Positions 110-21,331 are shown, counted from the stretch's first letter. The stretch: DNA of 40,000 nt from an uncultured Hyphomonadaceae bacterium (GCA_964342455.1 CAYFGB010000010.1:1-40000); one strand, 5' to 3'. Notes: generated by a model from the sequence alone, not told the origin. Program-made: numbers and translations.

Positions 110-238
110 CTGTATTGTACTCCTATCCTTACAGATAGGCTGAGCGCCGTTGGGAGCGCCTGGCCCGCAGCCGCTATCTCACAGATCACTTAACAAAGCG
201 AGAGGGAAAATTGTGACATTTTGTAGAGGGGTAAAAGT

Positions 239-275
239 CCCTCTCCTTCCCAAGGAGAGGGATTTAGGGTGAGGT
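239..275. repeat. left inverted repeat flanking the DUF559 gene
   Basis: Hairpin CCCTCTCCTT-ccc-AAGGAGAGGG (239-261) followed by ATTTAGGGTGAGGT. The reverse complement of 623-657 aligns to it over most positions. Confidence 0.8.
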
Positions 276-281
276 TGAATC

Positions 282-623: not shown

Positions 624-657
624 CCTCACCCCAACCCCCTCCTTGGAAAGGAGGGGG
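623..657. repeat. right inverted repeat flanking the DUF559 gene; its hairpin is the casposon target
   Basis: ACCTCACCCCAA followed by hairpin CCCCCTCCTT-gga-AAGGAGGGGG. This is the reverse-complement partner of 239-275. Confidence 0.8.
640..653. repeat. left copy of putative target-site duplication (TCCTTGGAAAGGAG)
   Basis: The 14-bp core is identical to 12923-12936. The perfect direct repeat extends to 19 bp (635-653 = 12918-12936) if the C-run is counted. Confidence 0.7.
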
Positions 658-664
658 GGGGGGG

Positions 665-691
665 AAATACTAAGGGAAAATCCATGTACCG
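665..691. repeat. left terminal inverted repeat
   Basis: AAATACTAAGGGAAAATCCATGTACCG. The reverse complement of 12888-12914 reads AAATACTAAGGGAAAATCCGTGTACCG. Weaker similarity (8/11) continues for 11 more bp inward. Confidence 0.9.
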
Positions 692-797
692 CTTAGGTTT
701 TGAATGAGGTGCGTGCCATTATGGCGGACATCACTTCAACCACTTTTGCGATACTTTATTCAAGTTTCGCTGACTGTGTCAGCGCCATAAAACGGGA

Positions 798-1109
798 TTA
801 CAACTCAGGCTCACCTTTCGACATTTCATAGCTCTCACGAAATTCTCTTTGAGCATTCTCAAGTCGGTTTTTCACATCATTGAAGCGCTCGACGATACTG
901 TCCCTGTCCAAGGGAGGGGGAGGAAGGTTACTCGGCGTCAACTCTGGAGCTGGTGGCCTCATCTCAAGTTGGCGCTCCAATTCCTCTTTCTCCATTTTAG
1001 TTGCGATGTCCGGCTCTCTGTCCCTGTTATCAGTCGCGATATCAGGAGCGGTCGCATCATTAAATGCTCCACCATCGCCAGAAAGTGCGTCACCAGAATG
1101 ATCAGACAT
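798..1109 (-). CDS. hypothetical acidic, proline-rich protein (last gene of cargo operon)
   Basis: 103-aa ORF. AAGGAG lies 7 nt upstream of the ATG at 1109, and the ORF starts 12 nt after the stop of the upstream ATPase gene. No motif recognised. Confidence 0.5.
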   Translation of the reverse strand: MSDHSGDALSGDGGAFNDATAPDIATDNRDREPDIATKMEKEELERQLEMRPPAPELTPSNLPPPPLDRDSIVERFNDVKNRLENAQREFRESYEMSKGEPEL

Positions 1110-1121
1110 GAGTTTTCTCCT

Positions 1122-2651
1122 TTAAGTTGACCAGCGTTCATCGCCATTCATGTCGTCGAAATGACGCAACCGGTCCTGAAATATTGAAAGCTCCCACCAC
1201 GGGCAGCGACTCGCTTTGATCAGCTTACATCCGCTGATCTCAATCAGCTGAGCGTCCCGTGGCATATTGAGAATATCTGCGACAGGTAAACGATCCACGG
1301 CCTGCTCTCCCCCAGACGCCGAAGCCGTCCGATTATCCGCACCCTCATTGTAATGTTGGCCGTAGCGAGTAATTTTCCCCGCTCGAGCACTCAAGCGCTT
1401 TGCGGTTTCGAGACTATCTACTGAAAGGTGTTGCACCATATCTGCACTTTCGAACAAATCCTTAGTGCCTTCTTTGCCATAGCGATCAACGAGAGACTGT
1501 TCAGTCTGGCTAAACAGCCAGAATGCCAGCCCCCGCTTACGATATTGCCGAACCCAAGTTGGTAGTGCGGTCTTTGGGAATTGAGCAACTTCATCGAAAA
1601 CGAACAACACCTTTTGCGGTCCGTCCACATCAGCCAGCTGGTCAACAATAGCCGTCATCTTGCGCGCTAAATCCGCACTATTGGCCTCCAGATCGACCTC
1701 TGGGCATTGGAGGTACAAGGTTGTGGGCTCTTTTTTCAGACGCGAAACATCAAACGGAGATTTTGCGGCATCTGCACCTAACAGCGTTCCGGGGGCATAC
1801 GGCGTAAAGGCTTTGCGCAGCTTTTCCATTTTCCAATATGCCTGCTTGGATGCGCCTGAGTTCAACTCATCTTGCATCAGAAGCAAATCTTCCATGATCG
1901 CGAGACCAATTTCCGATTGGCTGATATTGTTGACCATAGTTCCGATCATATCGCTGACGGGCTGCGACAAGAACGACCGCATGGAGCGCATGTTCATTAT
2001 CTCGGGAGCATATGCAGCGCCGTACTTCAAAACGGGCTCTGCATAATCCCTCGCGCCTTCTGCAACCCAAGGAGTATCGTTTTCTCCACGTGCATTTGAT
2101 TGAGGCACGAAAGTATGCGTGATATTACTGATATAACGACATGCCGTAACCATATCGCCGCGGGCAGCGCTACTCGTAATATGCGCAAGAGGGCAAATAC
2201 CAACGCTTTCGATACCGTAAGCCCCTGATGGGTTGTTCGCGACCACATTTTGCCCAAGCCAACTTGCGCGAAAATCTGCAGAAACCCGATAATTTTCATG
2301 ACCGATATCGATAACAACAAGGGAGGTATCGTTATCAATCCACCCCAGATTTGGCTGGATGACATCGCTCCCCTTACCAATTCCCGGCTTGCCAACGGTA
2401 ACCTTGCTAAAATGGCGTGGGTGAAAAAGCATACAGTCGTGGAGCTCATCGAACCCGATATAAGCGCCACCGTTCAATAGCCCTGCAGCACGATAGTCAT
2501 CGATATCCGCAAGCCCCCCACTATCGTGCATACCTGAAGTATGCCCCTGCTCTCGAAGTCTACGTTGCTGCAGGGCAACAAATTCCCGCACTTTTCGGTC
2601 CTGATATTCACGATGCTCTTTTATCCATTGGAGCGCATTACGAAGCTTCAT
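1122..2651 (-). CDS. TraG/VirD4-family type IV coupling protein-like ATPase (soluble domain only, no N-terminal TM segment)
   Basis: The Walker A region VGKPGIGKGSDVIQPNL matches the TraG/VirD4 pattern (..SGKG..V.PNLL). Walker B is LFVFDEVAQF. The downstream segment FWLFSQTEQSLVDRYGKEG....SVDSLETAKRLSARAG resembles the conserved Q..QL...YG / TA..LS..G region. The start ATG overlaps the upstream stop codon (ATGA at 2648-2651). Confidence 0.8.
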   Translation of the reverse strand: MKLRNALQWIKEHREYQDRKVREFVALQQRRLREQGHTSGMHDSGGLADIDDYRAAGLLNGGAYIGFDELHDCMLFHPRHFSKVTVGKPGIGKGSDVIQPNLGWIDNDTSLVVIDIGHENYRVSADFRASWLGQNVVANNPSGAYGIESVGICPLAHITSSAARGDMVTACRYISNITHTFVPQSNARGENDTPWVAEGARDYAEPVLKYGAAYAPEIMNMRSMRSFLSQPVSDMIGTMVNNISQSEIGLAIMEDLLLMQDELNSGASKQAYWKMEKLRKAFTPYAPGTLLGADAAKSPFDVSRLKKEPTTLYLQCPEVDLEANSADLARKMTAIVDQLADVDGPQKVLFVFDEVAQFPKTALPTWVRQYRKRGLAFWLFSQTEQSLVDRYGKEGTKDLFESADMVQHLSVDSLETAKRLSARAGKITRYGQHYNEGADNRTASASGGEQAVDRLPVADILNMPRDAQLIEISGCKLIKASRCPWWELSIFQDRLRHFDDMNGDERWST

Positions 2652-3139
2652 CGTTGTCCTCCATGGCGATCTGTTGAACGGCCAATTGGAATTCTATCGT
2701 CCGGCAATATCCTTTTCTTTGGCGTGACATTGATGAGTGGAGGACGTTTCACACGAGGCTGTTCAGCATTTGACCGGCCAGCTTCCTTTCCTCCTCGTCC
2801 GAGTTCCCGCAGTCCATCAATCCAGCTATGGTACTGGGGCCGACCTATGAAGGAGATTGTTGCCCACGTAACCGACCAACCGAAACCTGCGCAAAGGACC
2901 GTACCCACCCACGGCCATAGAATGGGCATCAGGTTAGGGCCAATAAGAGAACCGCTAACCAACCCAATGACCGGACCGAAGAACCACCCAAACAGCTTAA
3001 ATGGACTTGATATCATGCTGTCCATAGTCAGCGAAATGGCGAAGAATGTTCCGACCAAGATGGTAGGGAGAGCTGCGATACGCAGCCCCCACAAAACTGC
3101 ATCAGCAAAAGTGACACCTGAATTTACGTCGAATTCCAT
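2648..3139 (-). CDS. small polytopic membrane protein with basic C-terminal tail (possible detached TM anchor of the coupling protein)
   Basis: Three hydrophobic segments: LRIAALPTILVGTFFAISL, FGWFFGPVIGLVSGSLIG and MPILWPWVGTVLCAGFGWSVTWATISFIG. I prefer the ATG at 3139, with GGAG 7 nt upstream, over the GTG at 3145. There is a 4-nt overlap with the ATPase gene. Confidence 0.6.
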   Translation of the reverse strand: MEFDVNSGVTFADAVLWGLRIAALPTILVGTFFAISLTMDSMISSPFKLFGWFFGPVIGLVSGSLIGPNLMPILWPWVGTVLCAGFGWSVTWATISFIGRPQYHSWIDGLRELGRGGKEAGRSNAEQPRVKRPPLINVTPKKRILPDDRIPIGRSTDRHGGQR

Positions 3140-3151
3140 AATCACGCTCCG

Positions 3152-3832
3152 CTAAAAGAGGTTCTTGATGGAAATATCGTCTGGATGGACACCAGCAGCC
3201 ACGAAGTACGTCCGGTAAGCAGCCTCAAGATTATCCAACTGCCCGATGCTCATTGCGCCTTCATCAGAGACCGGAATCCCAAGGCCAACGAGCGATACAG
3301 AACACCCCTTCAGATACTCTCGCGCTGGTGTTGCGAACTGCTTTTCGCCACTCAGAACATCCATAAGGTTGGTCTCCCGTCCGGTTTCCAGCCCATCTGT
3401 CAGCAAAATGACGGTGCTACCCGGCGAACACTGGATAGGGGCCGTTTGCAGAGCAAAAAAGATCGAGGTTTCGGAGACGGTGAACTTCTCATTTGGAATG
3501 CCCGCAATATATTCGGCCACACCACCCGCGAGCTTGGACACACGGAGTTTCCGACCTGTTGTCCAAGATTTGGGATTGAGAATATCCCAATTCCGATCTC
3601 CGATGTGCTGGAGATAAATTGTATCACCAAGCAACGCACTGTTTGCCAAAAGGCTTGAAACCGACGCAGCTGCACGTTGCGCGTACGCTTCATTCTGCAC
3701 CAATGGAACACTTCCCGTCACATCAAGGAAGACGTAGTGGTTTGCCGGGGTCGAACGACGATCCGTCGCATTTGCCAAACCCGATGTAGCGAGTGCAAGA
3801 CCGAGGCAAAGCATCACAAAAATATTCTTCAT
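3152..3832 (-). CDS. secreted protein with VWA-like (MIDAS-variant) motifs
   Basis: Start set at MKNIFVMLCLGLALATSGLANA, a signal peptide, with an AAGGA RBS and 2 nt after the upstream stop codon (3837-3839). FLDVTGSV (DxTxS), ETSIFF and ILLTDGLET follow the order of VWA metal-site motifs. The fold assignment is tentative. Confidence 0.55.
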   Translation of the reverse strand: MKNIFVMLCLGLALATSGLANATDRRSTPANHYVFLDVTGSVPLVQNEAYAQRAAASVSSLLANSALLGDTIYLQHIGDRNWDILNPKSWTTGRKLRVSKLAGGVAEYIAGIPNEKFTVSETSIFFALQTAPIQCSPGSTVILLTDGLETGRETNLMDVLSGEKQFATPAREYLKGCSVSLVGLGIPVSDEGAMSIGQLDNLEAAYRTYFVAAGVHPDDISIKNLF

Positions 3833-3836
3833 AGTT

Positions 3837-4838
3837 TTAGTCCTTCTTATTGCTGTAAAGGTCGAGGGGATATGCGCCGTGCTCAGCAGCATGGGCCAAT
3901 GTCGGGCGATCCAATGCGCGAAACCGGCGACACAGATTTTCCAGAGCACTGAAGCTGACCGCTTTCAGTCCTTTGTCGGTTGGGAGTATGGCATCGCCTG
4001 TATCTGCCGCGAGGCACTTCTCAGCGAGCGCCTCCTCCAGAGCGCTTGCGAGTGGTTCAATGGCCTCCGAAACAACACTGCCCGTGTCGTCGAAACTCCA
4101 TTCTGGCAAAAGTTGCTCGCGGGCTGTCTGGAGATGATTGAGCTTGCTGGCCGTTTCTCGTGCTTCGCGCAAAACCGCACGTCCTTCAGCGAGTTTAGGC
4201 CAGTCCTCCCAAGCTCGCCGAGCGAGACCAAGCATCAACGAGATCATTGAAGACACCAGCGCGAAGCTTAACAGCGGAAAGCCGAACAAAGTCAGGCTAA
4301 ACCAGCCGGCTCCAATCTGAGCCGCCAATTCCGCAAGAGACTTATCGAACCATCCGTCACCCTCTTCTGGCGCTGTCGCCAGACCGAGACCAAGATCAGT
4401 CGGCTCATTTGCAGCGATCAATCCGTCCGCGATATATGGACCCAGACTTGCGGCGATAAGCCCGCCCAAACCCAGCAATGTCCCGATAACGAACAGCCGC
4501 ATAAGATTCGCGACAATAACCGAGGATTGTTTGTTGGCTTCATGCAGAAATGCATGCGCAGCAATGAAGGCAAAAAATGCAAGGCTGGCAGCGACGACCA
4601 TTCCGAGAGGATTGGATGAGTCATCAACGCCCAATACTGGCGGGAAAGCCGCTTCAAAGGCTGCTAAAATCAGTTTGGCATCCACCATAGTGACGCACGC
4701 AATTGCACCGCACAGAAAGAGGGCTGCTGCAGCTCTAACTGGAGCAAAGCGACCAGCCTTTTGGAGGTCGTATGCAAATTGCTCGATGCATGCCTGAGCG
4801 GCCAGAAGAATGGCTGGTTCTTTGGTGTTGAACTCCAT
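3837..4838 (-). CDS. polytopic membrane protein, function unknown
   Basis: 333-aa ORF with at least 4 hydrophobic helices and a C-terminal helical soluble region. The GGAGG RBS is embedded in the end of the upstream gene. Confidence 0.55.
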   Translation of the reverse strand: MEFNTKEPAILLAAQACIEQFAYDLQKAGRFAPVRAAAALFLCGAIACVTMVDAKLILAAFEAAFPPVLGVDDSSNPLGMVVAASLAFFAFIAAHAFLHEANKQSSVIVANLMRLFVIGTLLGLGGLIAASLGPYIADGLIAANEPTDLGLGLATAPEEGDGWFDKSLAELAAQIGAGWFSLTLFGFPLLSFALVSSMISLMLGLARRAWEDWPKLAEGRAVLREARETASKLNHLQTAREQLLPEWSFDDTGSVVSEAIEPLASALEEALAEKCLAADTGDAILPTDKGLKAVSFSALENLCRRFRALDRPTLAHAAEHGAYPLDLYSNKKD

Positions 4839-4840
4839 GG

Positions 4841-5209
4841 CTACACCTCCCGACCTGCGCGCGCACGCTCGCGGATACGGTCCAGAAAGCCTTTTTCAGG
4901 GTTCACCTGCGTCAATCCATAGAGCATACGGATGCGATGATGGGCGTCTTCGATCTCGGCATCGATTATAGCCACTTGATGCGCTCGCAGTCGGCGGGCC
5001 TCATCATGGAGGCGTGATATCAATCCCGCAGGCGGGATCGTCAGTTTTTCTACGCTGGCGGACAGCTTGTGTTTCAATGCCTCAAATTGCGAATTGTCTG
5101 CATCAATCGGTGCCCAAGCATTCTCTGCCGAACTCTTTTGTGCCGATGATGAATTCGTCTGAGCGAAATCCTCTTCAAACGAGCCAAACCCCTTCATGTC
5201 GTCGGGCAT
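4841..5209 (-). CDS. hypothetical protein (first gene of cargo operon)
   Basis: I prefer the ATG at 5209 (GGGGAG 8 nt upstream) over the GTG at 5218. The C-terminal half looks helical or coiled-coil. No motif recognised. Confidence 0.45.
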   Translation of the reverse strand: MPDDMKGFGSFEEDFAQTNSSSAQKSSAENAWAPIDADNSQFEALKHKLSASVEKLTIPPAGLISRLHDEARRLRAHQVAIIDAEIEDAHHRIRMLYGLTQVNPEKGFLDRIRERARAGREV

Positions 5210-5468
5210 AAGCCGCACTCCCCTGTTCGGGCCCGCGTCAAGCGGTCCGTTGTTGCCGTTTCAATGGGATAATTCCCAGTCACAAGAGAGGTGGGGATTG
5301 TCGAATCTTGGACGCACAAGCGGCCTGATCTGTCACTATCGGTATTACAGCCTGCCCAGTTACGTGAGCTGCGTAATGGGGCGATCCTTCTCCCGACAAA
5401 AGACGTTCATGACCTGCCTCACCTCTGAAAGCAGAGTGTGCACATCATTAGGTATCCTGTCAAGTTTT

Positions 5469-5494
5469 AGATATCCAATTGTATTTGGATATCT
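5469..5494. promoter_or_regulatory. inverted repeat AGATATCCAA-ttgtat-TTGGATATCT (candidate operator)
   Basis: Perfect 10-bp arms. A half-site AGATATCCAAA recurs at 6347-6357, upstream of the 261-aa gene. Confidence 0.45.
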
Positions 5495-6278
5495 AATTAT
5501 GGACTCGACCGGCTAGTTTTTGATTGGAAGGTGTTGGATTAATTCCGACTTCAGCCAGCAAGTCCTGAGGTACTTGATAGCCTTTGCGGATTGCTGCCAG
5601 AAAAAGCTCTCTGGTCATCCATTCGGTTCTGTTGCCGCCTGCTTCTCGGTCTGCAATTGAATTAAATAATTCGATGACTCGTGCATCAACTTTGAAAGAC
5701 AGGTTCTTTTTCCGTACATTTCGGTGATGTTCGGGAGGCAAGTCAGGACATGGAAGCTCCTGTCTCTTTCGCACTCTTCGCTGCGGCTTCTGGCTCTGCA
5801 AGCTATTAGTGATCTGATCGTACAATATTAAATGGTAATAATTTGAATCAATATCCCCCAATAAATTTACATACTTGTCGCTAATCGCAAGAAAGTCTTG
5901 AATATCGTAGAATTCTTCAGAGCGATAACTATCAATAGAATGCGCTAAATCTTGCATTATATCTGCTGATATTCTTTCAAGTGATTTAGTCTGCAAAACT
6001 AACGGCCAAATCTCATCCAAAATCACGGGAGGTTGTCGTCCCTGAATGAGTTCACCGGTTACGGTTTTTTGAAAGTCAGCAGGAATTCGCGACAAAACTT
6101 CGTCGGATAGTTGCCAAATATATGCTTGAAATTCTATTTTGGTGCGAAGCCGACGTTTTCGAAAACCTGAGCGGTCCACCTCTTCGAAACTTCTTTCAGC
6201 AATATCCAGATGTCGCTGATATCTGTCTTCGCCACTGATGGAATCCTCAGATTGAGTAAAGTCAGTTATATTGTCCAT
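5493..6278 (-). CDS. hypothetical protein with C-terminal ribbon-helix-helix-like segment
   Basis: 261-aa ORF with a GGAGAAG RBS and visibly AT-richer codon usage than its neighbours. KNLSFKVDARVIELFNSIADREAGGNRTEWMTRELFLAAIRKG has a strand-helix-helix layout like CopG/Arc-type repressors. The RHH call is tentative. Confidence 0.5.
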   Translation of the reverse strand: MDNITDFTQSEDSISGEDRYQRHLDIAERSFEEVDRSGFRKRRLRTKIEFQAYIWQLSDEVLSRIPADFQKTVTGELIQGRQPPVILDEIWPLVLQTKSLERISADIMQDLAHSIDSYRSEEFYDIQDFLAISDKYVNLLGDIDSNYYHLILYDQITNSLQSQKPQRRVRKRQELPCPDLPPEHHRNVRKKNLSFKVDARVIELFNSIADREAGGNRTEWMTRELFLAAIRKGYQVPQDLLAEVGINPTPSNQKLAGRVHN

Positions 6279-6346
6279 GATGTTGTGCTTCTCCAGTCCT
6301 GAAGCTTCGATTCGAGGCTTTAGTCAGCATATACACAATTATTAAT

Positions 6347-6357
6347 AGATATCCAAA
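6347..6357. promoter_or_regulatory. AGATATCCAAA half-site upstream of the 261-aa gene
   Basis: Same 10-mer as the arms of the 5469-5494 inverted repeat. It lies about 70 bp upstream of the start at 6278. Confidence 0.35.
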
Positions 6358-6619
6358 CGAGACTGTGTGCATAGGTGGTTTCACTCGTCTTTTAGGTGCA
6401 TGACAGCGCCGAAAGTAGCCACCGTTGATCTGGCTACATCAAGTTTAGTTCTTCAGTCGCGCTGAAAAGGCGCCGCGGATGCCTCAGGGGCTCCGCGGAC
6501 AATTGCTTGATGGTCATAGCTCTCAGTTGATCACATCAGCTGTCCGACGAGCGCGCTTTGATCTGCGCACCGGGTTCGCATCGCGCAAGATCGGCTTGGT
6601 GGTTTAATCAACTTCAACA

Positions 6620-6892
6620 CTATGCCGATTTATAAAAGCTGTCTGGCTTCTGTTCCTGTTTGGGCGGGGCATCCAGATGAACGGCAGCCCTCAGAAGAGC
6701 TTCCCTTTGATCGGGCCAAATTTTTTGCAATTCATTAAACGCGGCGAGGCGAGCTATTTGAATGTCTCTAGGGTTTCGAGGGCGTTTGGTCTTGTGGTCA
6801 TAGCTCTCGGTAAGTCTGAGCTGTTGTCTGACCAGCTCCCTTCCGTCTGCGTAGACCGGGCCATACGCATTGCTGCTATTCGATTTAGCCAT
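6620..6892 (-). CDS. hypothetical small protein
   Basis: I prefer the start MAKSNSS at 6892 (GGAGGGA RBS 6 nt upstream) over the ORF-track start at 6940. No motif recognised. Confidence 0.4.
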   Translation of the reverse strand: MAKSNSSNAYGPVYADGRELVRQQLRLTESYDHKTKRPRNPRDIQIARLAAFNELQKIWPDQREALLRAAVHLDAPPKQEQKPDSFYKSA

Positions 6893-6995
6893 ATCACTTC
6901 CCTCCGAAACTATGCGGACATATCCACTCCATTGCTGCACTTAGAAAAAAGTGCTCCTCGAAATCTCAATCGTCAAGGGAAAAAAGGCCGTGTTA

Positions 6996-7012
6996 AATAT
7001 CATAATGATATT
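6996..7012. promoter_or_regulatory. 17-bp palindrome AATATCATAATGATATT (candidate operator, copy 1)
   Basis: Perfect palindrome around a central base. Its reverse complement is identical to copy 2 at 7069-7085. Confidence 0.5.
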
Positions 7013-7068
7013 AATGGTGCAAATAAGGTGTAATATTCACTAACGTTTGACGCCCGTAAGTTCTTATA

Positions 7069-7085
7069 AATATCATTATGATATT
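7069..7085. promoter_or_regulatory. 17-bp palindrome AATATCATTATGATATT (candidate operator, copy 2)
   Basis: Same site as 6996-7012, with centres 73 bp apart. It lies in the spacer between the cas1 stop and the 90-aa gene. Confidence 0.5.
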
Positions 7086-7258
7086 TAATAACTTTCAATG
7101 GTCACGAAGGTGGAGTTTTCGGTAGGGGCTATATCTGTCAGATGAGGTGAGTATTGAGCGCTCAAATTCAGGCACGAAGCCTTAGATTGCGCAAGCAAAC
7201 TATGAGAGCTTATTCCCAGATATGTAAAAGAACCAACTCAATGGGTGGCAGCAGCTTG

Positions 7259-8314
7259 CTACAATTGGCCAGAACACAGACAGGCCCCAACTGATAAAAT
7301 GGCCGCCAGCTTCGCCGACAGCCTGCACATTCCATCTTGTCGGATGTAAAAGTCTTTCACTGTGAACCGTTCATTCAGTGCAAACTCCAACACAGCCTTA
7401 TCGACTTCAGGCCTATGTGGTTCAATGAGGTCCAACACATAGGAAGGGCGCTCTTCATAATTGCCATGAAAGATGCCGAAGTTCGGATCGTATCCGTGCG
7501 CCACCACGTCTAGTCGAATTTGAGATTCCAGAACCGCATAGCCATAGTTCAACATGGCATTGATGGGGTGATCCGCCTTTCGGTTACGCGCATTCTTACC
7601 TGCAATATTGGATGACCGTTTTGAATAGCTGAGCCATGGCGTTGGAACAGGATGTTGATTAATGCCCTTCCACCTCAACTCCAATCCGTTCCAGACATCG
7701 AAGTACCGTGCGGCAGCAACGCCTTCGATGCCCCGCAAGGCATCGACGCTGTCGGCTTCTCCATTTGCAATCTTGTGAAGGCCTTTCTCGGCCCAGATTT
7801 CCGCTTCGCGCCTCACCTCTGACGGCGGAAAAATTTCCCGTAATGTCACAAGGCTCGCTTCGAGCTTTCGTCTCACCAAAGCAGCACAAAAATCGAGACG
7901 TTTTTTCGGGTCATTTCGAATGGCAATTTGTTCCTGTAGTCTGACTGCGCAGATTGCGCCTTTTGATCCTCCGACAATGGCGCTGACTTTTCCCTTATAG
8001 GAGAGGTTCAAAAGCACCACGTCTTGAGCTTCCAGCCAGTCCAAAACAGCAAGCGTAATTGCGCCGGATGTTTCGATAAAAATGATGCGTTCTGGAATAG
8101 CCATTTCACCGGGATAAAACCGCCAGAACTTTTTCTCCTCGCTCGCATAGCTGCGCCCATTCTCAATTTCGAGTGCACCATTTCTGATGCGCAATTGGAC
8201 GCCATGTCCCGTCAAAATCAGTGGGTGCTTTCTTCGATGTCTGGCAAGCGTTTTAGGTTCCAGTTTTTCCGCTTTATTTTCCCAATACGCACAGCGCGAA
8301 TCCCAAGTGTCCAT
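7259..8314 (-). CDS. cas1: Cas1-family integrase (solo Cas1, casposase-like)
   Basis: 351 aa. The N-terminal beta domain is LILTGHGVQLRIRNGALEI...IIFIETSGAITLAVLDWLEAQDVVLLNL. The helical catalytic domain has LRGIEGVAAARYF (Glu), KADHPINAMLNYGYAVL (His) and GYDPNFGIFHG.....SYVLDLIEPHRPEVD (acidic residue). Order and spacing are typical of Cas1 (PF01867-type). Confidence 0.9.
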   Translation of the reverse strand: MDTWDSRCAYWENKAEKLEPKTLARHRRKHPLILTGHGVQLRIRNGALEIENGRSYASEEKKFWRFYPGEMAIPERIIFIETSGAITLAVLDWLEAQDVVLLNLSYKGKVSAIVGGSKGAICAVRLQEQIAIRNDPKKRLDFCAALVRRKLEASLVTLREIFPPSEVRREAEIWAEKGLHKIANGEADSVDALRGIEGVAAARYFDVWNGLELRWKGINQHPVPTPWLSYSKRSSNIAGKNARNRKADHPINAMLNYGYAVLESQIRLDVVAHGYDPNFGIFHGNYEERPSYVLDLIEPHRPEVDKAVLEFALNERFTVKDFYIRQDGMCRLSAKLAAILSVGACLCSGQL

Positions 8315-8571
8315 TTTCGACTCATTTTCTAGATGATTTATTCCTCAAGAAAATCATAGCAAAAATGTAGCCGAAAACTTAGAGAAAACGAGTTCCTTAT
8401 TGGAATAAAATGCACCAATAATTTATTTATGTTTTTTATGTCAAATTAATTCTCAGTATCTAATCTCAAAAAATGAACTCTATATTTACTGTATACATAC
8501 TATTGGCGCTAATTTTGCATGAATTTTCTCGGTAGTCCCGATACGGGACAGTTCAGAGATGAGTTTCGACC
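8315..8571. promoter_or_regulatory. AT-rich divergent control region between cas1 and the HTH-HNH-polB operon
   Basis: 257 bp, much more AT-rich than the surrounding DNA. It contains the inverted repeat ATGATTT-N11-AAATCAT (8333-8357) about 19 bp upstream of the cas1 start. It also contains hairpin GTCCCG-ata-CGGGAC (8535-8549) 22 bp upstream of the HTH gene start. No promoter hexamers are called. Confidence 0.5.
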
Positions 8572-9084
8572 ATGCCAAGGAAAACGAGTAAGAAGCGGTA
8601 TCGCTGGACGCGAAGCAAAGCGAATGAGCGCTTCGCTGCACTGCCAACGGAACGCAGGAGAGCCTATAGACTTGCTTTTCTGAGTGTGAAGAAAGGCGCG
8701 AGCATTACTAAAGCAGCTAGAGACTTTCACGTGGACCGTGAGAACCTCTCCTCATACGTCATAGCGAATTCACGGTTCAGGAGGAAGAAGGGTGGAAAGC
8801 TCAAAATCCTTCAGGATAAGCGTGTCGTGCCAAGAAGCGTTGTCACCACTGGCGGCTTGCTTCGACTCTCCATGAGTGCCGACCAAATCGAGAAAATCAG
8901 CGCACACAATCGCGATGTCGAACGCGAACGGCAGAACAAACAAGTTGGTGTTTTGGCGAAATGGGAAGGTGAGCAGGTCAGAGACACCGATGGTAATCGG
9001 TATGATTTGCTCTTTTCCAGAGAGGAATTGTTTGAAGTTCTACCGCCTAATGAAGCGCGGGATGACAATTACGACGAGGCGTAA
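8572..9084 (+). CDS. helix-turn-helix DNA-binding protein
   Basis: 170 aa. GASITKAARDFHVDRENLSSYV looks like a classical HTH. The gene ends 1 nt before the HNH gene start. Confidence 0.6.
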   Translation: MPRKTSKKRYRWTRSKANERFAALPTERRRAYRLAFLSVKKGASITKAARDFHVDRENLSSYVIANSRFRRKKGGKLKILQDKRVVPRSVVTTGGLLRLSMSADQIEKISAHNRDVERERQNKQVGVLAKWEGEQVRDTDGNRYDLLFSREELFEVLPPNEARDDNYDEA

Positions 9085-9085
9085 C

Positions 9086-9922
9086 ATGTCAGGGTTTCAA
9101 ACAGCAAAAGAAACGCACAAGCGCGCCACGCAGTCAGCACGGCGCGAACGCCAGCTTAAAATGCGGGGTCATGCTTGCTACATGTGCGGTGTTGAAGACC
9201 CCGAACTTCTGAAACTCGTCTATCTCGATGAGAAGAACATGTGGGACAAGTCGGAGGCTGTGCTGTGTCGTAACCACCGCCAGCTTCTTACCGTTTATCA
9301 AAACGCGGAAAAACTGCCTCAAGGGTTCCGACCCAACAGCAATGTAACCGTTTTCGATGCGCTATACATGGAAGCCAGCTTCGCTGACATGAACCGCCAA
9401 TCCTCCCTCAATAATCATAAGCAGTTTGCTGCTGAACATGTTGACCAAACGCTTCAACTTTCAAATCTGATTGAAGACCATTCGATACTCAAAAAGCGCC
9501 TGAAGAAGGCGATGAAGAAAGACCCATTTGGAACTCACGCAGATTGTTATTGTGCGATTTGCCATGAAGTGAGGCCAATGGTTCTGGAAGCTCATCATGT
9601 GGACAGGGAGGGGCTATCCGAGCGAGCCATTATTCTCTGTCATAACCATCATGACCTTGTCTCAATTGAGCAAAGATATCACCCCGACAAAGACGCGCTC
9701 CTATCGCTTGCGGATGACTATCGCGATTTTGTTGCTCAACGCCTTGGGATGGATGTTCTCGAAAAATTAGCTGCAATGCAGAAAGAGGCGACATCCAAAG
9801 TTCTATTCGATGATGCCATTCTGATGGCAAAAATTCACCAACTCGCAAATTCGCCGGATGCCGAGCTATCTGCAGAAGAATTTGAGGAAATGCTGGTTCC
9901 GGGTGTGGTAAAATGGAGCTGA
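9086..9922 (+). CDS. HNH endonuclease-domain protein (two Cys/His modules)
   Basis: Start moved to MSGFQT at 9086, because the ORF-track extension 8876-9085 overlaps the HTH gene. Module 1 is CYMCG...LCRNHRQL. Module 2 is CAICHEV..LEAHHVD......LCHNHHDLV. The stop overlaps the polB ATG by 10 nt. Confidence 0.75.
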   Translation: MSGFQTAKETHKRATQSARRERQLKMRGHACYMCGVEDPELLKLVYLDEKNMWDKSEAVLCRNHRQLLTVYQNAEKLPQGFRPNSNVTVFDALYMEASFADMNRQSSLNNHKQFAAEHVDQTLQLSNLIEDHSILKKRLKKAMKKDPFGTHADCYCAICHEVRPMVLEAHHVDREGLSERAIILCHNHHDLVSIEQRYHPDKDALLSLADDYRDFVAQRLGMDVLEKLAAMQKEATSKVLFDDAILMAKIHQLANSPDAELSAEEFEEMLVPGVVKWS

Positions 9923-12867
9923 AGCTTCGCGCCTTCGTAACACCTGAGAAAGGATTTAAGGGCTCGCGGCGAAAGCCATTTCCCAGACATCGCAGTGGAC
10001 GGACACTAACTTTCGATTGCGAAACACGCACAGACGCATCACAGCGTTTGCGGTTCGGAGCATATCGCATTGATGACGAGCCAGATGAGAATGGTGAAAC
10101 ACTCGTCTCCGAGGGCTTGTTTTACGATGAAGGCGGACTGGAAGACGGTGAGCTCGAAACACTGAAAGAGTATGCCCATTCTGAAGGTTTGCCGATTCTC
10201 AGCTATCAAGAATTCAGTGAAGAGATATTGCTCAGCCAATGTTACGAGCTGTCAGGCACAATAATCGGCTTCAACCTACCATTCGATTTGTCGCGCCTAG
10301 CCGTCAATGCATCCCCTTCCCGTAGATACAAGAACGATGACCGTTTTGAGAACGGCATTACGCTTCATCTTTTGCCCAATCAAAAGTATCGCGGAAAAGT
10401 TCGCGTTGGTCATGTAAACGCCAATCGGTCACATCTCTCATTCTACAAGGAGTTTGACTCCTACTATTTCGGCAACTTCATCGACGTGAAGACGCTCGGC
10501 ACTTCGTTGTTGTCCGGCACGTCCAGCCTTGCATCGGTTGCGAAGGCACTCGGAGTTTCGCATGAAAAAATGGAGACAGACGAGCACGGCAAGACGCTCA
10601 CGCGGGATTATATCGAATACGCCCGAAACGATGTGACCTGCACGTGGGAGTGCTATTGCGAACTGCTCACGCGACTAGGCACCCATGCGTTTGACGATTT
10701 AGACGATATGCAGGTCAACAGCGAAGCAAGCATAGGAAAAGCGTATCTTCGAGACTTCGGCATTCTGCCTTGGCGACAAGTCCAACCGAATTTTCCGCCT
10801 GAAATCACCGGCAAGATTATGAGTAGCTATTTCGGCGGTCGGACAGAAGTTCGTATTCGCCGGGACATCCGCGAAGTGTTCTATGCAGATTTCCTGTCCA
10901 TGTACCCAACGGTAAATGCGCTCATGGGGTTGTGGAAGTTCGTCATTGCGGAAGGCGTGGACTATGACGAGAGCGAAGACGCGAAATCTTGGACGACGGA
11001 GTTTCTTGAAAACGTCACCGGGGGAGATTTTCAATGCCAAGAGATTTGGCGAGACCTGCCGACGCTGGTTCAAGTTAAGCCTGATGATGACGTCCTTCCC
11101 ATTCGGGCTGATTTCGCAGATTCAGGCACAACCAATATCGGCATTAATCACCTGACATCTGACGCGCCGCTTTGGTTCACGCTCGCCGATTGCGTCGTGT
11201 CCAAACTGTTGACGGGCAAAACTCCGAAAGTTGAACGCGCAATTCGGTTCAGCCCAAAGTTACCTCAACATGGCCTGAAAACGAAAACACTACTGGGTCA
11301 AACGGACGGCGTGATTGACCCCTATAGTGACGACTTTTTCAAACGATTGATTGAAGAGCGCGCCAAACTGAAGGCGGCGAAGAACTCAGCGGCAGGTGAA
11401 GAAAAAGCCCGTCTGAAAATTGCAGAGAAAACCGTCAAGATTATTGCTAATGCGGCAAGCTACGGGCTCTTCATTGAGTTGAACCCGAAAGACTATCCAG
11501 AACCTCAAAGCGCTATTCGTTATGGGTTTGAGGTTGAGCCGCACGCGTTCGAAACCAAGACACTTGAGATACCCGGAGAGTATTTCCACCCACTTTTGGC
11601 AACCTGCATAACAGGTGCGGCTAGGCTCATGCTGGCGCTGGCTGAATGGCGCGCTGCGCAGCACAAAATAAACTGGACGTTCTGTGACACAGACGGACTG
11701 GCACTCGCAAAGCCAGACCATATGGAAAGAGCGGATTTTCTCACCAAATGTCGTGATGTTCTCGATTGGTTTAAACCGCTCAATCCATATGACGGGCAAG
11801 CTGGAATTTCTGTCCTTGAGCCCGAGGAAGAGAACTTCCACCCTGATTACGAAGTTGAAAAATCCAATCCTGATTGGACGCAGCTCCAACCTCTTTATTG
11901 CTATGCTGTTTCAGCGAAACGCTATGTCCTGTTCAACGAAATTGATGGCGACATCAATATCAGAAAATCTTCAGCTCACGGACTTGGCTATTGGGCGACA
12001 CCCTTTGGGGAGTTTGATGAAACTGCTGGTGAGTGGGAATGGCGCTTGGCACTTTGGGAGCACATCATCAAAGCTGCCAGAGAAGACAAAGATGATGAAA
12101 TCGACCTCTCGAAAGACGACCGCTTCAATCTAGCTGCAGCCGGACAATCAACCATTACGCGTTGGGATCAATTCCAATGGTATGCCCGATACAATGCGCA
12201 ACAAGCCACAGGCCATGGCCCGATTGATGATTATCGAAACGGTATTCAGCCGTTCAATTTCTTCCTTCGATTTCTGAACAAAGCTCATGACCGTGTTGAT
12301 GACACGAATCCAGATGTCGAAATCTGGCGTGCAATTGTTGGCCGGGAGCCAAAGCTTGCAGCGCCGTTCGATAAAGACTTGGGAACTGCAGCCTCACAAC
12401 TTTTCGACATTGAAGCCCAAACGAACGACGCGACAGAGGCGATTGATTTTTCGCCTTGGCTTCGGTCCTTCAGCGATAGGTTTTCCGACTATAATCTCCA
12501 TCGCGAAAACAAGTTCGCCGATTGTCAGGTCCACACAAAAGGACTTCTTCAGAGAAGGCACGTTCAAGCGAGCGGATTTGCGCACATCGGTAAGGAAAGC
12601 CATGATTGGGACGAAACACTTGTCCCGTGGGCCAATGAAAGCGGCGGAATTAGTTTCGGAACGTCCAATCTCGACACAGCATCAAAGCGGGACATCATCT
12701 TGAACGCATTGAGCAAAGGAACGTGCAGCTCAAATCAGCTTGTTCGGATGACGGGCGTTTCCAAAACCACGATGAGCCACTTGAAGCAGGGCAAACCTAT
12801 TCCACTGTCCAGCCTAGCGAAACTCCATGACGCGGTGATGTCGTTGCTGCACGCCGAAACGGTCTAG
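9913..12867 (+). CDS. polB: family B DNA polymerase with 3'-5' exonuclease domain and C-terminal HTH
   Basis: ExoI is FDCET (D at 10015). ExoII is GFNLPFDLSRL (N at 10273). ExoIII is YARNDV (Y at 10618). Motif A is YADFLSMYPT (D at 10888). Motif B is KIIANAASYGLF (11437-11472). Motif C is FCDTDGLAL (DTD at 11687-11695). A KxY motif, SAKRYVL, is also present. The C-terminal segment NQLVRMTGVSKTTMSHLKQGKPIPLSSL looks like an XRE-type HTH. Confidence 0.9.
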   Translation: MELKLRAFVTPEKGFKGSRRKPFPRHRSGRTLTFDCETRTDASQRLRFGAYRIDDEPDENGETLVSEGLFYDEGGLEDGELETLKEYAHSEGLPILSYQEFSEEILLSQCYELSGTIIGFNLPFDLSRLAVNASPSRRYKNDDRFENGITLHLLPNQKYRGKVRVGHVNANRSHLSFYKEFDSYYFGNFIDVKTLGTSLLSGTSSLASVAKALGVSHEKMETDEHGKTLTRDYIEYARNDVTCTWECYCELLTRLGTHAFDDLDDMQVNSEASIGKAYLRDFGILPWRQVQPNFPPEITGKIMSSYFGGRTEVRIRRDIREVFYADFLSMYPTVNALMGLWKFVIAEGVDYDESEDAKSWTTEFLENVTGGDFQCQEIWRDLPTLVQVKPDDDVLPIRADFADSGTTNIGINHLTSDAPLWFTLADCVVSKLLTGKTPKVERAIRFSPKLPQHGLKTKTLLGQTDGVIDPYSDDFFKRLIEERAKLKAAKNSAAGEEKARLKIAEKTVKIIANAASYGLFIELNPKDYPEPQSAIRYGFEVEPHAFETKTLEIPGEYFHPLLATCITGAARLMLALAEWRAAQHKINWTFCDTDGLALAKPDHMERADFLTKCRDVLDWFKPLNPYDGQAGISVLEPEEENFHPDYEVEKSNPDWTQLQPLYCYAVSAKRYVLFNEIDGDINIRKSSAHGLGYWATPFGEFDETAGEWEWRLALWEHIIKAAREDKDDEIDLSKDDRFNLAAAGQSTITRWDQFQWYARYNAQQATGHGPIDDYRNGIQPFNFFLRFLNKAHDRVDDTNPDVEIWRAIVGREPKLAAPFDKDLGTAASQLFDIEAQTNDATEAIDFSPWLRSFSDRFSDYNLHRENKFADCQVHTKGLLQRRHVQASGFAHIGKESHDWDETLVPWANESGGISFGTSNLDTASKRDIILNALSKGTCSSNQLVRMTGVSKTTMSHLKQGKPIPLSSLAKLHDAVMSLLHAETV

Positions 12868-12887
12868 CTTTCTAGCCAACACCCAAC

Positions 12888-12914
12888 CGGTACACGGATT
12901 TTCCCTTAGTATTT
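12888..12914. repeat. right terminal inverted repeat
   Basis: CGGTACACGGATTTTCCCTTAGTATTT, the reverse complement of 665-691 with one mismatch. It begins 20 nt after the polB stop. Confidence 0.9.
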
Positions 12915-12922
12915 ACCCCCCC

Positions 12923-12936
12923 TCCTTGGAAAGGAG
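12923..12936. repeat. right copy of putative target-site duplication (TCCTTGGAAAGGAG)
   Basis: Identical to 640-653. It sits inside a third copy of the host hairpin (12916-12943) that lacks the ACCTCACCCC part of the DUF559 flank. Confidence 0.7.
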
Positions 12937-12958
12937 AGGGAGGCGCTGAACTTTAACG

Positions 12959-13204
12959 TCAATCCTCTTCACCCAACGCCGCAAGTTTCGCCTGAACGCG
13001 GCCCCGGTTTTTCGTTGCGATAGCAACATATTGGCTAGCGCCCGCCGCTTCAAAAACCTCAAGCGCCGCGTCAGTACACGCAATCGAGCGCTGATAATTG
13101 TCTCTTTGGTTCTCGCCCTTGTCGCCCATCGTTTCGTAAAGTACTGCCAGATTTGCCTGCGCCGTGCCTGAAACTATCCCGCTCCTGCCGTTTTCATGCC
13201 GCAT
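12959..13204 (-). CDS. small TPR-like protein or fragment
   Basis: 81-aa ORF. ANLAVLYETMGDKGENQRDNYQRSIACTDAALEVFEAAGASQYV resembles the terminal repeats of TPR proteins. It may be a remnant. Confidence 0.35.
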   Translation of the reverse strand: MRHENGRSGIVSGTAQANLAVLYETMGDKGENQRDNYQRSIACTDAALEVFEAAGASQYVAIATKNRGRVQAKLAALGEED

Positions 13205-13302
13205 CAGTGGGGCATGTGTTTTGCGCGTGCAAATGAGTAGGCATTTGCGATGAATGCCGTTAGGACGTTAAGGATGACTGATATGACAACGCCCCGGGGG
13301 AA

Positions 13303-20075: not shown

Positions 20076-20134
20076 TATGTCTAAATAGTTTGCAGGAAGA
20101 TCAGTCGTCTGACGAAGGCGCAGCTGCGGTATCG

Positions 20135-21331
20135 TCAGACGACTGATCGTTCTGCCTGATCGGACCCATTGTCCGTCTTTGGCTTTCTCGGCTTGCGATT
20201 GCGACGACGCGAAGACGATCTGGAACGGGAAGACGATTTTTTCTCGTTTTCACCTTCAGCCTCTGGCGAGTCGGAAGATGTCTCTTCAGATACCGACTCT
20301 TCGCTTGTTTCGGCTTGCTGCGGCGTTTTCGTGCCGACGTCAAACACTTCACCAAGTCCCGCATCATCCAGGAAGGACTCAACGGCCTCAGCATTTTGCG
20401 CTTCGGCAAAGACCGTTTTCAGATTGGCAAAGTTGCGTGCGGAGTGGTGCTGAACGCTTTGTTTGTATTCTTCACCGTCAATCTCGACGGTCACTGTCTT
20501 GCGCTTGGCGGCGATTGACGCGTCATTGGCCAAAGACCAGGCGACATAGGTTTCAGCGACTTCGTCGCGGATCAGCGGCAGAAGCGTCTCGGAAACCTGT
20601 TCGAACGTTTCAAACGGTGCGCCGGGACGTGGATCTTCCATGAATTCGCACCAGGCAGACACGAAAGGCGCAGTCTCGCGGATCAGTGTTGCGGGCTCAT
20701 CATCCATCATCAACTGGATCAGCTGTCCGGCCAGAGCAAAGTCAGCAAGGCTCGGATGGCCACCAAACAGGAACAGATGATGTTCCAGATGCGCATTCAA
20801 AAGGGTGAGGAAGCGCTGGAAGGATTTCTCGACAAGCTGGCCGTTTTTCTTGTTGAGGCCGATGACCTTCAACCGTCCGGTCATGCTTTTGGCGACGGAC
20901 TTTTCGATTCCGGCTCTGTCTTCGACCTCGAAGCCGTCGAAAATGCATTCGACCTGACGCTTCGCAGAGGCCTTCGCGGCGGCCGTTCCCGACCAGCGGT
21001 AATGGAACATCGCCTTGTTCAGCCATTCATCGGCATAGGCTTCAAGGAGGCTGGCGATCAGCCGACATGCCGCATCGTCGGGCGTGGCAGTTGGCTGGTT
21101 TCTGGTCGATTCAATCCGGTTCAGGATCAGGCTGGTATCATGCGAAATACCGCCATTCGGCGACACAAGCATGGGAAGTGCATCGCTTTTTGACAGCGTG
21201 CGAAATTCCTCATCTCGGCCGAAAGTCTTCGGAACCCAGTCAAACGGCAGCTTCTTGTAGCGAAGATAGCTACGAACCTTGGTTGAGAAGGGTGATGTTT
21301 CGAGCCCGAAAAGTCGGTAAGAGGCGCCCAT
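20135..21331 (-). CDS. glutathione S-transferase-family protein with charged disordered C-terminal tail
   Basis: 398 aa. It has an N-terminal thioredoxin-like GST domain (YRLFGLETSPFSTKVRSYLRYKKLPF) and a helical GST_C-like middle. The last ~65 aa are Ser/Glu-rich and then Arg/Lys-rich. Confidence 0.7.
   Translation of the reverse strand: MGASYRLFGLETSPFSTKVRSYLRYKKLPFDWVPKTFGRDEEFRTLSKSDALPMLVSPNGGISHDTSLILNRIESTRNQPTATPDDAACRLIASLLEAYADEWLNKAMFHYRWSGTAAAKASAKRQVECIFDGFEVEDRAGIEKSVAKSMTGRLKVIGLNKKNGQLVEKSFQRFLTLLNAHLEHHLFLFGGHPSLADFALAGQLIQLMMDDEPATLIRETAPFVSAWCEFMEDPRPGAPFETFEQVSETLLPLIRDEVAETYVAWSLANDASIAAKRKTVTVEIDGEEYKQSVQHHSARNFANLKTVFAEAQNAEAVESFLDDAGLGEVFDVGTKTPQQAETSEESVSEETSSDSPEAEGENEKKSSSRSRSSSRRRNRKPRKPKTDNGSDQAERSVV

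Follow-up and report, generated by a model that had tools for sequence, protein, structure and literature searches.

Casposons are the proposed ancestors of the adaptation machinery of CRISPR systems, and their choice of target has been studied for archaeal families only, which use the ends of tRNA or archaeal elongation factor 2 (aEF-2) genes. Other casposases give target-site duplications (TSDs) of 13 to 15 bp and depend on the terminal 5 nt of the terminal inverted repeats (TIRs) (PMC6614799, PMC8464041, PMC9939771). For family 3, targets have been described as "intergenic" only (PMC6614799, PMC4779613), and the terminus of HenMar-C1, CCCCCTCTCCCGGATCGGGAGGGG-ATAAGGGAAAGCA, was annotated as a 37-nt TIR with a 1-nt direct repeat (PMC4046053, Krupovic et al. 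2014). Here we describe a putative family 3 casposon of 12.3 kb, encoding Cas1 and a family B DNA polymerase (PolB), at positions 654 to 12922 of a 40,000-nt stretch of DNA from an uncultured Hyphomonadaceae bacterium (GCA_964342455.1, CAYFGB010000010.1:1-40000; hereafter, the window). A hairpin that existed before insertion has its loop and inner stem duplicated symmetrically around the element, the ends of the element copy the stem, and the same arrangement recurs across the casposase clade. We consider it quite probable that the casposon produced this hairpin-centred TSD.

Each hairpin copy abuts one TIR of the casposon. On the left, CCCCCTCCTT-GGA-AAGGAGGGGG (635 to 657) is directly preceded by AACCTCACCCC-AA (622 to 634). 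On the right, CCCCCTCCTT-GGA-AAGGAGAGGG (12918 to 12940), with 9 of 10 stem pairs formed, is directly preceded by casposon sequence (..CCCTTAGTATTTA and seven cytosines, C7; 12877 to 12922) and not by ACCTCACCCC, in agreement with the initial annotation of the locus, in which a copy at 12916 to 12943 was said to lack the adjoining segment. The two copies are direct and 12.3 kb apart. On the positive strand, the left copy forms a perfect 19-nt direct repeat, CCCCCTCCTTGGAAAGGAG (635 to 653), with 12918 to 12936, the loop being included in the identity, and 24 of 26 positions match when 635 to 660 is compared with 12918 to 12943, the full extent of the right copy. The unambiguous core of the duplication, TCCTTGGAAAGGA, occupies 640 to 652 and 12923 to 12935; its centre coincides with the hairpin axis (offset, 0.0), and the original host 3' arm, AAGGAGAGGGAGG, extends to 12943. 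The left TIR (654 to 702, positive strand) consists of a poly-G tract followed by AAATACTAAGGGAAAATCCATGTACCG..., and the right TIR (12877 to 12922, positive strand) ends in ...GGATTTTCCCTTAGTATTTA and C7 (12916 to 12922). Over 49 nt, 654 to 702 and 12877 to 12925 are 88% complementary, and the G run at the left end spans 653 to 664. The range first assigned to the target, 12888 to 12943, thus holds a real hairpin but also some 35 nt that belong to the right TIR; duplicated host DNA begins at 12918 at the earliest.

A 17-nt hairpin motif was matched four times in the 40 kb, compared with 0.13 matches expected, and no shuffle attained this number. The hairpin resembles a repetitive extragenic palindrome (REP) in form, being a short imperfect intergenic palindrome; two independent copies are found in the 40 kb, both on a cassette that carries a DUF559 gene. 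Folded as single-stranded DNA, the left junction reached -11.5 kcal/mol (z, -2.9) and the right junction -7.1 kcal/mol. The pre-insertion site rebuilt from the host flanks folded at -6.5 kcal/mol (z, -1.0); the original hairpin was therefore imperfect. The 3' end of the first host gene on the right (12959 to 13204, negative strand; 81 aa, with a weak tetratricopeptide repeat match) faces the hairpin, so the target lies between two convergent genes, this one and the DUF559 gene (282 to 623, positive strand), whose 113-aa product has a Vsr-like endonuclease fold (Pfam PF04480, E=1.1e-28; NCBIfam PRK09767). Two other identities of the target were considered and rejected. No terminator-like site was called in positions 100 to 900 and the rebuilt site has no T run, so that the window hairpin does not qualify as a rho-independent terminator; tRNA and Rfam scans found no tRNA or known RNA family at the target. 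The window as a whole contains no tRNA, and its only Rfam match is the serC leader at 118 to 170.

The hairpin could in principle belong to the host or to the element. The DUF559 gene is bracketed by an inverted repeat of about 39 nt: the reverse complement of 232 to 276 aligns with 622 to 660, first through a common AACCTCACCC and then through the hairpin, which forms the outer part of the repeat. The left repeat (238 to 276, positive strand) consists of a hairpin (238 to 262), TTTA and GGGTGAGGTT (267 to 276). This hairpin, TCCCTCTCCTT-CCC-AAGGAGAGGGA, is an intact and unoccupied paralog of the target (-11.6 kcal/mol; z, -3.6), 75 to 83% similar to the junction copies, and it mirrors the AACCTCACCCC-AA segment and hairpin on the right. 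That segment, the proximal part of the right repeat (622 to 634, positive strand), is host DNA, overlaps the stop codon at 621 to 623 and, as a flank of the target, may have a leader-like role; it also adjoins the target hairpin in three other loci (L112, L115 and L118; loci are designated here by L and a number). The module CCTCACCC(n)AA plus CCCTCTCC-loop-GGAGAGGG (CCTCACCCnAA type) brackets casposon-free DUF559 genes in other Alphaproteobacteria as well. Such genes in Azospirillum, Sinorhizobium, Sphingomonas and Sphingobium have inverted repeats composed of the hairpin and GGGTGAGG(G), which are 43 to 45 nt long in Sinorhizobium sp. and read CCCTCACCCCAACCCCTCTCCCGCAAGGGGAGAGGGG in an Azospirillum lipoferum flank; A. 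brasilense, Sphingomonas parapaucimobilis and Sphingobium sp. have an equal arrangement around DUF559. Finally, the left and right flanks joined without the element, AACCTCACCCCAA-CCCCCTCCTTGGAAAGGAGAGGGA, give a closer alignment with the intact paralog (the reverse complement of 232 to 276) than the two junctions do, and this alignment takes in all of the 3' arm AAGGAGAGGGA. Because the module exists at casposon-free DUF559 genes, the loop is direct and the joined flanks match the paralog, we conclude that the hairpin is host target DNA and not element DNA. In the right inverted repeat of DUF559 it makes up the distal part, as had been proposed.

The same hairpin has also been read in the opposite way. 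If it were part of the casposon TIR, as annotated in HenMar-C1 (CCCCCTCTCCCGGATCGGGAGGGGATAAGGGAAAGCA with a 1-nt direct repeat; some TIRs contain internal palindromes [PMC4046053]), the real TSD would be very short or absent and the likeness to the DUF559 flank secondary; the inverted match in the window can indeed be extended through the stem. The window copies, however, are direct through the asymmetric loop GGA, which a TIR would invert, and the left hairpin is continuous with AACCTCACCCC-AA, a module of casposon-free DUF559 genes. In relatives of the element, moreover, outer stem halves and A/T tracts outside the repeat are found on opposite sides of the element, and near-identical TIRs occur with unrelated hairpins. 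We therefore regard a TIR origin of the hairpin as very improbable.

Casposon-free hairpin pairs do exist, both around DUF559 genes and around 46- to 51-nt spacers in L112 and L115, and the two junction hairpins might accordingly be separate pre-existing copies of a repeat with the casposon merely lying between them and the apparent TSD a coincidence. High-copy tandem pairs without an insertion, which would have favored such a coincidence, were not what we found. The insertion-free pairs are inverted, 50 to 420 bp apart, and have GGTGAGG/CCTCACC inside, whereas the copies in the window are direct, 12.3 kb apart, and each touch a TIR. An independent third copy (238 to 262) is only 75 to 83% similar, compared with the 19-nt identity of the junction copies, and more than 15 other genomes show the same arrangement around hairpins of other sequence. 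Coincidence is thus almost certainly not the explanation. The second copy instead has the properties of an insertion-generated duplication, as initially suggested: it is direct with the loop included, it abuts the TIR, and the joined flanks match the paralog at 232 to 276.

We evaluated how general this arrangement is among relatives of the element. A profile built from 25 Cas1 homologs yielded 80 loci from species-representative genomes, nearly all of them Alphaproteobacteria; the closest Cas1 relatives (L112 to L115) were fetched separately. All elements with identifiable ends have a terminal G(4-9) followed by TATAGT(T/G)AT, ATAAGG or ATAAAG, the corresponding sequence in the window being (T)AAATAC. 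For the 23 elements in which both ends were found, all with 5'-G(4-9)...C(4-9)-3' termini, the pre-insertion site was rebuilt from the host flanks alone. Since GC-rich host DNA folds well anyway, the minimum free energy of 50-nt windows was dropped as a statistic, and we asked instead whether a stem had its centre on the duplicated segment. The rebuilt site contained a hairpin of at least seven Watson-Crick pairs in 17 of 23 elements, and in 15 of these 17 the hairpin axis was at most 1.5 nt from the centre of the duplicated core. Among the first 19 elements, an equally good and centred hairpin was found at no more than 0.6% of host-flank positions for 11 and no more than 2.1% for 12 (Fisher combined p, ~1e-19).

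The targets differ widely in sequence. Five are terminator-like and bidirectional, with an A tract, a stem and a T tract (L037, L040, L044, L045 and L053), and in each of them an element of 9 to 17 kb separates the two halves of the outer stem, and likewise the A tract from the T tract; only insertion into a pre-existing hairpin explains these split terminators. Others are REP-like, either of the CCCTCTCC..GGAGAGGG type (the window, L009, L013, L019, L030, L043, L112 and L115) or of the type TCCCGCCTTCGCGGGAATGAC (L042, L049 and L063), an intact copy of which is present 60 nt from the L063 element. Unrelated hairpins hold elements that share one TIR (GGGGGTATAGTTATCTCC). In five loci, a second TIR end abuts the same hairpin, the back-to-back ends being separated only by a C run, 13 to 14 nt and a G run (L016, 5250 to 5300; L031, 3285 to 3330; L052, 14065 to 14110; L019, 3800 to 3840; L050, 640 to 690); the arrangement in L016 reads ACTATACCCCC-TCTCCCGGGAGGGA-GGGGGTATAGT. 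The two ends in L031 come from different elements, of which the one upstream has a PolB fragment. In L016, L052, L019 and L050, no Cas1 or PolB was found within 7 kb past the second TIR end, which may represent a non-autonomous element or a solo TIR.

All of the targets are intergenic and many are at gene 3' ends, in line with the "intergenic" of the family 3 literature (PMC4779613). Integration might thus be indifferent to hairpins, with insertions surviving in harmless terminators and REPs through selection and not targeting. Selection for intergenic sites, however, predicts neither centring within 1.5 nt in 15 of 17 elements nor a common sequence frame (see below) nor the reuse of one hairpin when a further TIR end arrives. 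Assuming that 5% of intergenic positions would qualify, we calculate a binomial probability of ~1e-14 for 15 of 23. Selection without targeting consequently seems quite improbable to us.

From a single palindromic copy, TSD and TIR extension cannot be told apart, as the initial annotation noted and we agree; across the family, they can be separated by summing the junction runs. The G (or C) run at a junction adds up the run of the TIR itself and whatever G (or C) the duplication contributes. Therefore, the left run, the right run and the core together equal the TSD plus twice the TIR run. This sum was 22 to 25 (mode, 23) in 22 of 23 elements, whichever way the nucleotides are divided. In four of them (L043, L112, L019 and L031), a single C or G is present in the host flank next to the core, so the TIR run must be at least 4. 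Given this run and the sums of 22 to 25, the TSD is probably 13 to 15 bp (core TCCTTGGAAAGGA in the window) and not 26. The 26-nt repeat would overstate the TSD because the terminal G/C run of the TIR merges with the stem: the repeat in the window appears as 19 to 26 nt, with the right C7 supplying the five cytosines of the stem and the left G tract its G arm. Host flanks outside the duplication usually retain 3 to 5 C on the left and 3 to 5 G on the right. These residues define the target frame CCC-N13-GGG on both strands, which the CCCCC-3' ends of the element mimic.

Two modes of target recognition can be considered. The casposase, or a partner such as the product of a 278-aa open reading frame (ORF) of the element, could recognize a cruciform that has been extruded, or else a hairpin in single-stranded DNA such as the lagging strand. 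Targets as unlike as terminators and REPs have widely differing stem sequences but the same hairpin geometry, and the Methanosarcina mazei casposase accepts single-stranded substrates, according to a summary of Hickman et al. 2020 (PMC9939771). The CCC/GGG frame and the subclade-specific stems (the CCCTCTCC type in the ATAAAG/ATAAGG TIR group), on the other hand, point to sequence reading; hairpins are weak or absent in L015, L028 and L029, and several stems, including the original one in the window, are imperfect. We consider structure-specific targeting unlikely. We infer that the casposase reads a two-fold symmetric CCC-N13-GGG duplex site with a fixed ruler and that the TSD has the length given above; we hold this duplex reading of sequence plus ruler to be about as probable as not, the alternative being that a hairpin, extruded or single-stranded, is recognized.

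By analogy with the casposases of Aciduliprofundum boonei, M. mazei and Candidatus Nitrosopumilus koreensis and with Cas1-Cas2 (PMC6614799, PMC8464041, PMC9939771), insertion into the window locus may have proceeded as follows. The pre-insertion locus would have contained one imperfect hairpin, CCCCCTCCTT-GGA-AAGGAGAGGGAGG, between the convergent DUF559 and 81-aa genes. A casposase multimer would bind the two-fold symmetric CCC-N13-GGG site, and the two C-run 3' ends of the element (...TATTTACCCCCCC-3', CCCCC-3'OH) would attack both target strands at points symmetric about the hairpin axis and ~13 to 15 bp apart. Gap repair would then duplicate the loop and inner stem (core TCCTTGGAAAGGA). The left junction would rebuild the hairpin from the host 5' arm, the core and the G run of the TIR, and the right junction from the C run of the TIR, the core and the host 3' arm. 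With G-run...C-run termini and a CCC-N13-GGG target, each junction would therefore regain a complete hairpin, as a result of which the repeat looks 19 to 26 nt long and a usable target is left on both sides of the element.

Several observations weigh against this account. Six of the 23 elements have no clear centred hairpin (L015, L018, L028, L029, L031 and L050). Two Novosphingobium elements, L015 (2630 to 2670) and L020 (5240 to 5280), share the core TCCGGCGGGCAA(A), which lies beside and not on a hairpin, GCAAAGGGAC-TCG-TCCCTTTGC; their outer flanks differ, which suggests independent insertions into a repeated sequence, and some lineages may read sequence more than shape. The rebuilt hairpin in the window is barely more stable than shuffles (z, -1.0). 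The window is also the element that breaks the sum of 22 to 25, its left G tract of 10 to 12 raising the total to 30 to 32. An alternative is that the TSD of the window is longer (~22 to 26 nt) with two later A/G changes. In independent assemblies (L001, L002, L006, L007 and L008), the left poly-G is 10, 11 or 12 nt long and the right C7 is invariant; most assemblies have G(n)-T-AAATAC as in the right TIR, and the window has a G before AAATAC. We read the long left poly-G as an unstable, expanded homopolymer, the variation in its length reflecting either a slippage-prone tract or a difficulty of sequencing or assembly. The printed ends of HenMar-C1 fit inverted loop repeats better than direct ones (GGATC/GCATC), and the 1-nt direct repeat annotated there may be an under-call. 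We know of no biochemistry for any family 3 casposase.

An empty site was not recovered either. Contigs were sought by exact matches to four proteins (Cas1, the DUF559 product and the flank proteins of 81 aa and 171 aa), and all informative ones with the flanking proteins carried the casposon. A metagenome scan for TAACCTCACCCCAA-N15-40-GCGCTGAACTTTAAC, the pattern of the predicted empty site (AACCTCACCCCAACCCCCTCCTTGGAAAGGAGAGGGAGGCGCTG), gave no match. The TIR 19-mer had 13 metagenome matches, none of which followed a G run and all of which were chance matches. Cas1 had no tblastn match among PLSDB plasmids, and plasmid comparisons therefore yield no empty sites. The comparison of orthologous loci that had been proposed was possible in sister species (trpF homologs, 80 to 85% identical) but gave no clean empty site: their serC-trpF interval holds differing genes, among them PMT_2 and a two-component system, without DUF559 and the 81-aa gene.

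The region from ~225 to 13300 of the window, between the serC promoter region and the 169/171-aa gene and trpF, is a variable hotspot in comparison with the sister-species loci L089, L092, L095 and L097, in which DUF559, the casposon and the 81-aa gene give way to other genes, such as those of a two-component system or one for a PMT_2 glycosyltransferase.

Is DUF559 itself a determinant of the target? We rejected this as a general rule: by tblastn, DUF559 was present in only two of ~85 loci (L030 and L035) and beside an element end in L035 only. There, the casposon end lies ~130 nt upstream of DUF559, with the hairpin CCCTCCCTGCGGGAGAGGG next to it. In L030, the gene is 5.5 kb away and flanked by the repeat family of that locus's own casposon target. 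The closest relatives, L112 and L115 (Cas1, 50 to 51% identical; TIR, GGGGG(G)ATAAAGC), have as their target CCCCTCTCCC-loop-GGGAGAGGGG, which is directly followed by TTG(A/G)GGTGAGGG, 46 to 51 nt, CCCTCATCCCC and a second hairpin. This is the composite inverted repeat of the window cassette without the DUF559 gene. The composite repeat is at the cargo end, distal to PolB, in the window, L112 and L115; from these three cases we infer, as a lead only, that the CCTCACC motif (CCTCACCCCAA) acts like a leader and sets the orientation in the subclade of the window.

Separately, DUF559 genes look like small cassettes with inverted repeats of 25 to 45 nt made of the CCCTCTCC..GGAGAGGG hairpin and (C)TAGGGTGAGGG (window, 238 to 657; L116 to L121). 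Such cassettes are wedged between operon genes: sufB and sufC, and pntA/pntB-type transhydrogenase subunits in S. parapaucimobilis. Gene-less doublets with a 46- to 51-nt interior are present in L112 (14040 to 14190) and L115 (15340 to 15453). These arrangements suggest that the DUF559 unit is mobile and has derivatives resembling miniature inverted-repeat transposable elements. The cassettes, with hairpin-containing inverted repeats and wedged into operons, are a lead of their own. In the window, the cassette sits just upstream of the serC leader (118 to 170, negative strand; RF00517, 43 bits), which precedes serC-serA, running off the left end of the window.

The casposase (7259 to 8314, negative strand) is a 351-aa Cas1 homolog without a fused helix-turn-helix (HTH) domain, matching Pfam Cas_Cas1 above the cut-off (7.8e-36) and NCBIfam TIGR00287 with 110 bits against a cut-off of 71.7. 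By BLASTP, its identity is highest with Cas1 of HenMar-C1 (42%), followed by NitAL212-C1 (29%), StrAlb-C1 (28%) and a casposase of family 1 (25%); its placement uses pairwise identity to reference sequences from the supplement of PMC4046053 and no tree. PolB (9913 to 12867, positive strand; 984 aa) carries a C-terminal HTH, the only one found in the element by the Pfam scan, and its match to Pfam DNA_pol_B_2 (E=1.3e-5) scores 24.8 bits, slightly under the curated cut-off of 25.8; homologs 36 to 52% identical adjoin Cas1 in 45 related loci. An adjacent 278-aa ORF (9086 to 9922, positive strand), with homologs in L009 and L112 to L115, is part of the conserved PolB-side module. It has no Pfam or NCBIfam match, and two CxxC...HH motifs in its translation indicate that it is possibly an HNH nuclease. 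On the basis of the Cas1 identity to HenMar-C1, the PolB common to 45 loci and the 49-nt TIRs, we assign the element provisionally to bacterial casposon family 3 as a new member. No CRISPR-like array repeat family was found in the 40 kb, and no Cas2 or other Cas domain in the ORFs of the element. The G+C content is 46 to 51% within the casposon and 55 to 59% in the DNA on its right. Since the flanking trpF product is 78% identical to a Ponticaulis sp. protein and the element contigs are from TARA Oceans assemblies, the host would seem to be a marine alphaproteobacterium near Ponticaulis.

The cargo includes a VirD4/TraG-type coupling protein of type IV secretion (1122 to 2651, negative strand; Pfam T4SS-DNA_transf, 1.3e-21, and TraG-D_C, 5.8e-17; also NCBIfam), of which no homolog was found among 84 related loci. 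The 2016 casposon survey knew of conjugation-related functions in no casposon (PMC4779613). A casposon with this cargo could hitch-hike on a conjugative system. Downstream of cas1, the element also contains an AT-rich inverted repeat of 23 nt (6993 to 7015 and 7066 to 7088), whose arms are 96% complementary and separated by 50 nt, and a direct repeat of 57 nt (6511 to 6567 and 6795 to 6851; 72% identity, 284 nt apart), both possible regulatory or replication-related sites. In host DNA, a 64-nt near-perfect palindrome with 32-nt arms, 84% complementary and without a spacer, lies at 20092 to 20155, at the start of a 398-aa ORF on the negative strand.

Taken beyond the duplication itself, our tentative proposal, which we think somewhat less probable than its negation, is that family 3 casposases are palindrome-specific integrases that cut symmetrically within CCC-N13-GGG and, since the element termini mimic the stem, regenerate the palindromic target on both sides, giving element-palindrome-element arrays (L016, L031 and L052). 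They might then serve as a living model for an origin of CRISPR repeats from a duplicated target site and not from TIRs, with the subclade of the window preferring widespread and maybe mobile DUF559-associated repeat hairpins. A preference for palindrome centres, in which the core is duplicated and the hairpin restored at both junctions, would come nearer than any natural system so far to the action of Cas1-Cas2 on palindromic CRISPR repeats; published family 3 termini such as those of HenMar-C1 would read differently, and annotation would gain a rule for element boundaries. The short, fully specified substrate (CCC-N13-GGG and a TIR ending in CCCCC-3') lends itself to a first biochemical test of a bacterial casposase.

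Compared with known systems, the window element is most like HenMar-C1 and NitAL212-C1: all three have PolB, TIRs and a Cas1 to which no HTH is fused, and all are intergenic in an alphaproteobacterial host. The HenMar-C1 terminus has the same type of hairpin followed by ATAAGGGAAA, where the window has ..AAATACTAAGGGAAAA; the palindrome is counted as TIR in the literature on HenMar-C1, whereas in the window it is host target DNA. The TIR of NitAL212-C1 starts with GGGGTAT and is accompanied by a 14-nt direct repeat. The cargo differs: in place of the VirD4/TraG coupling protein, HenMar-C1 carries a methyltransferase, a kinase and a fusion of Cas4 with a helicase. A structured hairpin would be a type of target different from those of archaeal casposons, as the initial annotation expected, and it goes beyond the "intergenic" of the family 3 papers (PMC6614799, PMC4779613). 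A full-text search of the literature found no description of hairpin targets for casposons, and an earlier description elsewhere is possible. The recurrence of the arrangement in about 20 related elements points to a preference for hairpin centres.

With A. boonei (family 2, 3' end of tRNA-Pro) and N. koreensis (family 1, 3' end of aEF-2), the elements studied here appear to share several features. Cas1 integrates them site-specifically, with a TSD of 13 to 15 bp and a need for the final ~5 nt of the TIR; a leader-like determinant lies upstream, insertions can be in tandem, and the target includes a palindromic segment, which in the tRNA is the T-psi-C arm (PMC5137440, PMC6614799, PMC8464041, PMC9939771). 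The archaeal targets, however, are single conserved genes, whereas those of family 3 are many intergenic CCC-N13-GGG hairpins, and only here is the TSD centred on the hairpin axis and the stem mimicked by the TIR termini. Thus, the integration chemistry is that of an ordinary casposon, and the new part is the palindrome-centred, self-regenerating target.

Small intergenic hairpins are safe and recurrent insertion sites for other mobile elements too: IS1397 and ISKpn1 insert in REPs and bacterial interspersed mosaic elements, IS110/IS621-type elements in REPs, class C group II introns after terminators, and integron cassettes use attC hairpins. The enzymes of these elements (DDE, DEDD, reverse transcriptase or tyrosine recombinase) are unrelated to Cas1, and to our knowledge, none of the elements gives a hairpin-centred 13- to 15-bp duplication by a Cas1-family integrase. 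The gene associated with the REP-like hairpin here is DUF559, and the hairpin family recurs in other genera.

The CRISPR Cas1-Cas2 system is similar in its homologous enzyme, in the staggered attack at both borders of an often palindromic repeat, and in the duplication of that repeat with each integration, the polarity of which is set in CRISPR by the leader (PMC6614799). It differs in that no Cas2, array or leader is known here and in that the duplicated unit is the full CRISPR repeat of 24 to 47 bp and not 13 to 15 bp. Whereas CRISPR integrates a ~30-bp spacer, the casposon is a 12-kb self-replicating element.

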